Positions 38,597-39,673 of a DNA stretch of 64,000 bases are shown here, in pieces (position 1 is the first letter of the stretch; each line of letters begins with the position of its first letter). The stretch comes from a virus, in IMG/VR virus record IMGVR_UViG_3300021961_000037, positions 50,095 to 114,094 of that record. One strand, 5' to 3'. A model generated the notes under the pieces. That model saw only the letters and a program-made list of their open reading frames with translations. It had not been told where the DNA came from and searched no databases. A program made the translations under genes and the position numbers.

Positions 38597-39673
38597 ATGG
38601 CATTTGAGAGGCTTGGAGCAGACAGGAATCCCGTACAGAAGACGGGAACCGACAAATTGTTCGGTGCTGGCAGCGACGGAACAGTAACCATCTCCACGAA
38701 CACGTCGCTTTCACGCGACATGTATTACGCCAACCTCACTGTGAACTCTGGAATCACGCTTTTTACCAACGGATTCAAGATTTTTGTTAGCGGGAACTTG
38801 GTAAACGACGGCACAATAGGAATGCCTACTGGAACAGCACAGACGACTTCGGTCATGGCAGGAACGACCATGACGAGAATTGACGGTAATGCTGGGTATG
38901 TTTCGGGCGATGCCTTGTCGGGAACAATGACGATTGCCGAGGTCCGTGACATTGAAGCGCTTGTCACGGGCGTAATGCAAAAAGGTGCCACGCGAAGGGT
39001 GTGGTGGTCTGGTGCTACTGGAACTGCTGGCACTAGCGGAACCGCAAACCCCGGTGGTGGCGGAAATGCAACTGCTGGTACTGCGGGAACTGGTGGTTCG
39101 GCAGGTCAGGGCGGTGGCTCCGTTGTCGTTCTCGCCAAGTCAATTAGTGGGTCTGGAACATTTGTGAGCGAAGGAACTGCTGGAACTTCGGGAAATCCAG
39201 GAACCGCTGGAAGCAACGCACCGGGAAACCCAGGGCATAACCCCGGCGGGCATGCTGGCGCACATAATCCTGGCGGTCATGCACAAGGACATAACCCCGG
39301 CGGAACTGGCCATAACCCACCCGGTCACTTCCATCACCCCGGTCACCATCAGGCGCCGAATTGCGGAGTCCATGAAGTTTGGGGCTGCTCGCATCATCAC
39401 CCCGGTCACCACAACCCCGCGCACCAACACACAAACCCTGGAAACTCCTTCTCACATCCAGGAAACCCATTCCACTACTCACATCCAGGAAACCCATTCC
39501 ATTACAGTCACCCCGGCAACCCGTTCCACAACCCATCTTATTCTGGTGGCACTGCCAACCCAGGAAATGCAGGAAACCCAGGAAATGCTGGAAGTCTCGT
39601 TGTTTTGACCCGAGGAATCACTACCCATGTCGCAACCTCCAACTTGACATACGTGGAGGACCTAGATGACTAA
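38597..39673 (+). CDS. Putative adhesin with His/Asn/Pro/Gly-rich insert
   Basis: Paralogous scaffold to 37858 with a roughly 120-aa insert of HNPG and HPGNPF repeats around CGVHEVWGC. Confidence 0.7.
   Translation: MAFERLGADRNPVQKTGTDKLFGAGSDGTVTISTNTSLSRDMYYANLTVNSGITLFTNGFKIFVSGNLVNDGTIGMPTGTAQTTSVMAGTTMTRIDGNAGYVSGDALSGTMTIAEVRDIEALVTGVMQKGATRRVWWSGATGTAGTSGTANPGGGGNATAGTAGTGGSAGQGGGSVVVLAKSISGSGTFVSEGTAGTSGNPGTAGSNAPGNPGHNPGGHAGAHNPGGHAQGHNPGGTGHNPPGHFHHPGHHQAPNCGVHEVWGCSHHHPGHHNPAHQHTNPGNSFSHPGNPFHYSHPGNPFHYSHPGNPFHNPSYSGGTANPGNAGNPGNAGSLVVLTRGITTHVATSNLTYVEDLDD
39451..39531 (+). repeat. 27-bp coding tandem repeat x3 (SHPGNPFHY)
   Basis: ctcacatccaggaaacccattccacta twice nearly exact; third copy synonymously diverged. 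Confidence 0.85.

Follow-up and report, generated by a model that had tools for sequence, protein, structure and literature searches.

A His-rich insert with length-matched arms, a putative hairpin stalk, in a probable tip protein of an aquatic myovirus

The protein described here, encoded in the tail-fibre module of an aquatic myovirus, is quite probably a virion tip protein in which a β-helix scaffold bears a paired hairpin stalk with a variable loop. The two halves of its His-rich insert gain and lose equal numbers of residues across relatives, which argues that they pair as the arms of a hairpin stalk, and comparison of homologous sequences gives strong support to a hairpin of tunable length, antiparallel and in register, as an insert of the scaffold. 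The gene lies in the window, i.e., the whole stretch of 64,000 nt that was analysed, which belongs to an IMG/VR virus record of 114 kb with an estimated completeness of 78%. The gene and its parts are as follows.

38597..39673, + strand, whole gene of 358 aa from the list of open reading frames, β-helix scaffold with putative His-rich hairpin insert
38654..39178, + strand, scaffold, residues ~20-194, small β-helix with Gly-rich turns as predicted by AlphaFold2, last strand VVVLAKSISGSGTFVSEGT
39179..39235, + strand, outbound Gly-x-x base, residues 195-213 (AGTSGNPGTAGSNAPGNPG), based on matched base indels in relatives
39236..39310, + strand, outbound His units, residues 214-238: HNPGGHAGA (9), HNPGGHAQG (9), HNPGGTG (7)
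39311..39436, + strand, apex module, residues 239-280, based on the Cys loop (39362-39388) and conserved flanks
39437..39526, + strand, return His units, residues 281-310: PGNSFS, HPGNPFHYS (9), HPGNPFHYS (9), HPGNPF
39527..39595, + strand, return base, residues 311-333: invariant HNPSYxGG, then TANPGNAGNPGNAGS
39596..39670, + strand, closing scaffold strands, residues 334-358 (LVVLTRGITTHVATSNLTYVEDLDD), conserved C-terminus

Motifs of the insert

All motifs listed in the original prediction were reproduced exactly by translation of 38597-39670 on the + strand. The outbound side reads GNPG, HNPGGHAGA-HNPGGHAQG-HNPGGTG-HNPPGHF and HHPGHHQAPN; the apex, C256-GVHEVWG-C264 (nt 39362-39388), is followed by SHHHPGHHNPAHQHTN; and the return side reads PGNSFS-HPGNPFHYS-HPGNPFHYS-HPGNPF, HNPSYSGG and TANPGNAGNPGNAGS. 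Taken together, the apex module is HNPPGHF-HHPGHH-QAPN-C-GVHEVWG-C-S-HHHPGHH-NPAHQHTN. Residues 206-315 (110 aa) comprise 25 His, 20 Gly, 19 Pro and 14 Asn, so that 23% of this segment is His. The outbound His units form a tandem repeat with a period of 27 nt, while the return base, in which H311, P313, G317 and G318 are invariant, contains an 18-nt repeat of 94% identity. As well, an exact 17-nt direct repeat, CATCACCCCGGTCACCA, which encodes HHPGHH, is present at 39332-39348 and 39395-39411, on either side of the Cys loop, and could act as a recombination anchor for loop exchange.

Co-variation of arm lengths across homologues

Outbound and return arms were measured separately in 41 distinct homologous inserts with four sequence anchors, namely the strand end FVSEGT, the last HNPPGHF-like motif, an HQHxN-like motif and the strand start LVVLTR (alternatively HNPSYxGG). 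Outbound arms of 31-78 aa and return arms of 40-87 aa occur, in 20 distinct length pairs. A constant offset between the two (outbound minus return) was found in 38 of these 41 inserts, at -9 in the nearest clade and -10 in two further clades. The original prediction described an extended antiparallel two-arm structure of tunable length and named independent variation of the arms as evidence against it; the identical residue changes and mirrored unit order in these 38 inserts support such a structure and do not show that independence.

Sister comparisons and phylogenetic contrasts were made on a tree built from scaffold columns only. The outbound/return change was -5/-5 between the window protein and P0001, -9/-9 between P0012 and P0009, -3/-3 between P0005 and P0003, -10/-10 between P0020 and P0017, 14/14 between P0014 and P0015, and +29/+29 between P0001 and L005. 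Two-sided contrasts had the same sign on both arms in 21 of 22 cases (binomial p 1e-5), and arm contrasts with unit branch lengths correlated at 0.96, while apex length was uncorrelated with arm length (0.25-0.29 in contrasts). Scaling the arm contrasts by real branch lengths gave an r of only 0.29 (p 0.11), because near-zero branches, on which the scaffold is near-identical and one unit differs, dominate this calculation. We state openly that the sign test and the unit-branch contrasts were chosen over the real-branch contrasts.

The match extends to the individual units. When each arm was split at the unit-leading His and read from base to apex, the lists of unit lengths were equal on both arms for ~18 architectures. 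The protein under study has 9,9,7 against 9,9,7, and other matched architectures are 9,9,7,5; 9,7,5; 5,5,9,9,5; 7,7,9,9,5; 7x6; 7,7,7,5; 7,5; 10,13,5; and 9,9,9,16,16. Indels in the Gly-x-x base are also matched on both arms, at 3/3 and 9/9 (P0004/P0007 and the P0023 clade), and in a distant clade with inserts of ~215 residues, four sequences have arms of 80/86 and three have arms of 82/88. Three inserts depart from the rule, namely P0006, P0122 and L078, with one or two whole units unmatched on one arm, which may be real or assembly errors. In L078 (Ga0163212_1010403), for instance, an unmatched 18-residue tandem duplication (HNPGGHSGAHNPGGHAPG twice) is present in the outbound arm only, and it could be a new expansion that is uncompensated, or else an error in assembling the repeat.

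An intrinsically disordered His-rich linker or metal sponge, in which the halves are unpaired, would account for the extreme composition (23% His), for the low AlphaFold2 confidence of the arms and for repeats that expand and contract. It offers no reason, however, why two non-adjacent arrays should be equal, with a constant offset in 38/41 inserts and a mirrored unit order, so we strongly disfavour this explanation and consider it very improbable. Matching might also arise at the nucleic acid level, through an mRNA or DNA hairpin or through recombination that copies both arms at once, as highly similar tandem DNA repeats are found on both arms in some genomes (L005, with near-identical units at 26/27 and 26/27 nt). 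Yet no inverted DNA repeat was found in the target gene, the arms differ in unit sequence, and the matched events involve 3, 5, 7, 9, 10 and 16 residues at various positions, which leaves this explanation disfavoured and barely credible. The lack of an inverted DNA repeat in the gene indicates that the length constraint acts on the protein rather than on the nucleic acid, and the paired hairpin stalk remains the preferred reading of the insert.

Register, Cys pair and apex loop

In the target, the register i+j is 519 for the pairs of unit-leading His (214/305, 223/296 and 232/287), 518 for the centre of the two HHPGHH motifs and 520 for the two Cys. Among 13 nearest-clade sequences with different arm and loop lengths, 12 show a difference of -1 between the basal His register and the Cys register. 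An arm register shared in this way from base to tip would place the two Cys opposite each other, and such a facing pair, as judged from register, is compatible with either a disulfide or a shared metal site.

A third Cys sits in HHNPCHQH in most of the close relatives P0001-P0012, at a position where the window protein has Ala (A275). In the hairpin register this Cys faces the His of HNPPG-H-F, and 8 of the 10 nearest-clade sequences that possess it have a His opposite. The odd Cys count in those relatives argues for metal ligation or inter-chain bonds.

The apex was originally pictured as a disulfide-closed tip presenting a single Trp, with a hypervariable Cys loop. Hypervariability was borne out in the closest clade, in which the loop comprises 6-10 residues and differs in sequence almost every time, while its flanks are conserved. 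The Cys pair fared differently, being C-x6-10-C in the nearest clade (often plus the third Cys), a vicinal CC in the next clade and absent in many homologues, and Trp is confined to the loop of this sequence. A disulfide-closed Trp tip is peculiar to a single clade and a single sequence.

The quasi-symmetry of the insert, likewise proposed from the single sequence, becomes compelling through homologue comparison only. For the target alone, the His mirror is within chance, since the best His-His antidiagonal contains 6 pairs against 5.7 expected from shuffles, and an anchor-free His-His antidiagonal test was significant in no clade (median z -0.1). Given this null result, direct facing of His by His is not claimed here as demonstrated.

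Scaffold fold and structure prediction

An AlphaFold2 model of the target was built with a 70-sequence alignment. The scaffold is confidently predicted to be a small closed single-chain β-helix, with a pLDDT of 90-96 over residues 21-80 and 141-210; residues 311-340 are confident as well (return base, 84-94), and closing strands are predicted at residues 333-338 and 351-355. The insert is located between the strand ending in FVSEGT (residue 194) and the strand LVVLTR (residue 334).

Within the insert, the apex was modelled as a β-hairpin with a pLDDT of 61-74, and both arms fell below 50. The modelled apex hairpin has a register of i+j ~523 and leaves the two Cys apart, whereas Cys pair and His ladder give 519-520. 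A second AlphaFold2 model, of the homologue with the shortest arms, P0015, was no more confident (insert pLDDT 45-60).

The best structural matches of the scaffold in VIA-align were bactofilin β-helices (Z 6.4 and 5.8). The resemblance lies in the small right-handed β-helix (Z 6.4, rmsd 2.1 over 72 residues) and is at the level of fold only, with 10-12% identity. Bactofilins are cytoskeletal polymers, and unlike the target they carry no such insert. Foldseek of the target against PDB gave no match, and a PDB profile search gave chance matches only. Foldseek matches in BFVD to collagen-like and Gly-rich proteins (TM 0.2-0.36) were treated as compositional.

Comparison with known fibre tips and His-rich proteins

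By analogy, the closest functional counterpart of the target would be the needle tip of T4 gp37. The tip of this T4-type long tail fibre protein consists of collar, needle and head (PDB 2XGF, as cited in PMC10175313); it doubles back at the head, and His motifs bind Fe along the needle (PMC12609058, PMC10175313). The number of His motifs in gp37-type needles may scale with needle length (PMC12609058). In gp37, and putatively in the target, the chain runs out to a small distal head and back, so that outbound and return segments must match, and the needle, metal-stabilised in gp37, is His-rich and belongs to the distal end of the tail-fibre module. The doubling back is suggested in the target by the constant offset (38/41) and the mirrored unit order of the aligned sequences. 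The two differ in that gp37 forms an intertwined homotrimer whose HxH motifs lie in β-strands, whereas the putative stalk of the target is an insert in a single-chain β-helix, built from HNPGG and HPGNP units rich in Pro, Gly and Asn. The regular HxH spacing of gp37 needles is lacking in the target, which has three HxH motifs only (HFH 244, HHH 266 and HQH 276), all in the apex module and none on the arms, although HxHxH runs exist in some relatives.

A more specific version of the hairpin explanation follows from this analogy, namely that three hairpins intertwine into a six-stranded needle of gp37 type, with octahedral sites for Fe(II) or other metals built along its axis by facing His residues of the three chains. 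Tips of the gp37 type double back, have six strands and bind Fe through di-His motifs (PMC12609058), mirrored HxHxH runs are found in relatives (HAHTH versus HTHSHSH in P0028, HAHAH versus HSHSH in P0017), and it would be difficult for two strands alone to form a stable stalk of 10-25 nm. Nevertheless, the target arms carry no HxH motif, the predicted scaffold is a closed single-chain β-helix, and neither sequence nor fold matched gp37 tips, which were not found by the PDB profile search (E<=1), by Foldseek or among the VIA-align top 50; for an insert modelled with low confidence these searches are weak evidence. We regard the trimeric needle as rather unlikely.

The target also resembles gp38 of T2, T6 and S16, which is likewise a small separate protein of the fibre module with a β-helix and with Gly-rich motifs that frame hypervariable recognition segments. 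The Gly-rich motifs of gp38 were proposed to be recombination points (PMC12032242), and the target has its own counterpart in conserved flanks around a segment, 39211-39440, that is replaced in relatives. It could accordingly be supposed that the insert is a compact Gly/Pro-rich PGII sandwich as in the gp38 of T2 and S16, with meandering units, several exposed loops and no extended stalk. The gp38 protein is monomeric and consists of an attachment domain, a β-helix and a PGII sandwich, in which Gly-rich motifs hold hypervariable loops (PMC12032242), and Gly-x-x segments lie on either side of the target insert. VIA-align gave weak fold matches to gp38 of S16 (6f45_D, Z 4.6, 128 residues aligned) and of PP01 (9v85_C, Z 4.0), both inside the range that the tool itself calls common and states to be noise. 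A meander, however, couples neighbouring units and not mirrored ones, and the data fit one long hairpin better. Instead of the gp38 pattern of five Gly-rich motifs and four short hypervariable loops on a compact sandwich, the target shows one long insert of two arms and only one variable apex, and His-rich repeats are no feature of gp38. A gp38-like sandwich is thus improbable, and the single hairpin remains preferred.

Short His-Pro-Gly-rich tandem units that bind Zn or Cu are known from the GHHPH repeats of histidine-rich glycoprotein and from prion octarepeats, which the target resembles in units such as HHPGHH. Those proteins have single flexible arrays with no mirrored second arm, and homology to the target is unsupported. 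The target might best be described as a doubling-back His-rich fibre tip on an unrelated scaffold, with a modular code of rungs.

Repeat turnover and cassette replacement

The near-identity of two 27-nt return units, at 39451-39477 and 39478-39504, was confirmed (26/27 positions match), and the third 27-nt return unit matches at 18/27 positions. A recent expansion of the return arm, which had been deduced from this near-identity, is nevertheless doubtful, as the outbound 9-residue partners match each other at only 19/27 nt and the 9,9 architecture is common to relatives at 80-90% identity. In this genome, a recent expansion of one arm alone is less likely than homogenisation of existing units or a compensating duplication. 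Both arms clearly undergo repeat turnover.

Assembled contigs of related populations align with the gene at 85-99% in the scaffold and in the return base, but have unrelated sequence in place of 39211-39440, which covers the outbound arm and the apex; in one of them, 228 nt are exchanged for 255 unrelated nt. A variable protein of a diversity-generating retroelement (DGR), of the Mtd type, was considered and rejected: no reverse transcriptase (RVT_1) was found in the 114-kb record, itself only 78% complete by estimate, and the target gene contains no second copy of the apex region that could form a template/variable repeat pair. By analogy, the conserved neighbourhood, the cassette replacement and the flanking repeat match known traits of host-range determinants.

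Family and genomic neighbourhood

Among 5.8 billion proteins, 168 homologues of the target were found, all from metagenomes or viral contigs. The family is characterised by a His-rich insert at this position, and its proteins contain 11-57 His each. No family was assigned to the target in Pfam (E<=0.01), PHROG or NCBIfam, an ESM Atlas search returned unnamed viral clusters only, and blastn/tblastn of the region, the target and its paralogue against 50,697 records of cultured phages gave no match. The tail sheath and the Trp halogenase of the record share only 31-37% identity with actinophage or cyanophage proteins, psbA was not found in the record, and matches in genome collections were MAG contigs of unrelated phyla only, which give no clue to the host. 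The DNA is present in marine and estuary metagenomes, and relatives occur in freshwater and lagoon samples. The genes next to the target are as follows.

37496..37858, + strand, 120-aa partner gene (p120, phrog_20100, PHROG E 2e-7), first of a triplet
37858..38595, + strand, 245-aa paralogue with the same N-terminal scaffold (by hhalign) and without the His-rich insert
39666..39974, + strand, 102-aa ORF, start overlapping the target stop by 8 nt (ATG within GATGACTAA)

The paralogue was earlier said to have the same scaffold without the insert. This holds for the N-terminal ~72 residues, which align with target residues 17-88 (hhalign probability 99.5%, E 3.7e-22; BLASTP 46% identity); the C-terminal part, which lies outside the hhalign alignment, was compared by eye only and has the same order of Gly-rich segment, strand, Gly-rich segment and strand as the target, with no insert. 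In related contigs the paralogue is always directly upstream of the target, and the gene order p120-paralogue-target is kept in >55 viral contigs. The target is the fastest-evolving gene of this triplet, at 35-71% conservation in related contigs against 70-91% for the paralogue. The 102-aa ORF occurs only in closer relatives of the target (25-56% identity) and may be a cognate assembly factor or partner.

The window codes for a tail sheath, a baseplate wedge protein, a fibre of 1931 aa, several Gly_rich_2 tip proteins and an Mtd_N fibre of 718 aa, which marks the virus as a myovirus with a very large host-recognition module, and the target lies two genes beyond the Mtd_N fibre gene, in the tail-fibre module. 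The Mtd_N fibre (35338-37494) has three near-identical C-terminal repeats of ~35 aa (LDDVGDVTITSAASGEFLKWNGSAWVND...) and four internal copies of a ~90-aa module, TADLTG...TISLGGDLSGSASF. Five ORFs (22277, 24200, 28218, 29168 and 32664; window 22277-33602) match phrog_2295, suggesting an unusually large set of alternative tip proteins. ORF 32664, the only one of these also scanned against Pfam, matches Gly_rich_2 (PF21722, 4.9e-15), the family of the tip proteins in the window, and the target has no Pfam match to it at E<=0.01.

Four genes for 2OG-Fe(II) oxygenases are present around the target (33905-35049 and 40000-45466), with PF13640 at 33905, 40000 and 43350 and PF13759 at 34435, and a flavin Trp halogenase is encoded at 40607. 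A block of oxygenase-halogenase-p308-p155-oxygenase adjoins the p120-paralogue-target triplet in >50 viral contigs. In L030, L034, L049, L053, L056 and L058, the oxygenase-halogenase block has moved from downstream to upstream of the triplet, with linkage kept. Every stalk unit of the target contains an X-Pro-Gly triplet, which is the classic motif of prolyl-4-hydroxylase. One possibility is that the linked, P4H-like 2OG-Fe(II) oxygenases use the X-Pro-Gly units (N-P-G on the outbound arm, H-P-G on the return arm) as substrates, and perhaps the flavin halogenase also acts on the stalk units.

Proposed mechanism

We propose that the target, as a probable virion tip protein, would carry its insert between the last two strand segments of a single-chain β-helix, and that the insert would run out and back as an antiparallel hairpin stalk paired residue for residue. 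Each rung would consist of an outbound HNPGG plus 0, 2 or 4 linker residues, facing an equal-length return HPGNP plus 0, 2 or 4. The rungs would stand on the Gly-x-x base and end in a conserved His cluster with HHPGHH on either side, which would bear the hypervariable loop of 6-10 residues, closed in the target's clade by two facing Cys. A rung added or removed on both arms would change the length of the stalk and leave base and tip undisturbed.

Several parts of this model go further. The apex loop may contact the host receptor, the length of the stalk may be tuned to the host surface, and the facing His (and His/Cys) residues could plausibly be zipped by metal ions. The arms may be polyproline/polyglycine-II-like rather than regular β, as hinted by their Pro content, too high for a regular β-ladder (HPGNPHPGNPHPGNP in relatives), and by a Gly-x-x base whose indel lengths are multiples of three. 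A modular metal-zipped ladder of Pro/Gly/His units, acting as an adjustable stalk that places a receptor loop at different depths of the envelope, is put forward tentatively. It is possible, at a similarly low level of confidence, that this polyproline/polyglycine-II-type hairpin is a previously undescribed protein architecture and a candidate new fold.

Significance

If true, a widespread family of aquatic phage tip proteins would possess a natural protein stalk of programmable length. The ~25 His per copy would bear on the trace metal carried by aquatic phage particles, which is the subject of the 'Ferrojan horse' idea (as cited in PMC11705849). The strict pairing rule would provide a simple test, from sequence only, that is applicable to other repeat-containing fibre proteins, and the family itself would offer a natural series of stalks, with ~12 to ~59 unit residues per arm, for studying reach in relation to host surface layers.
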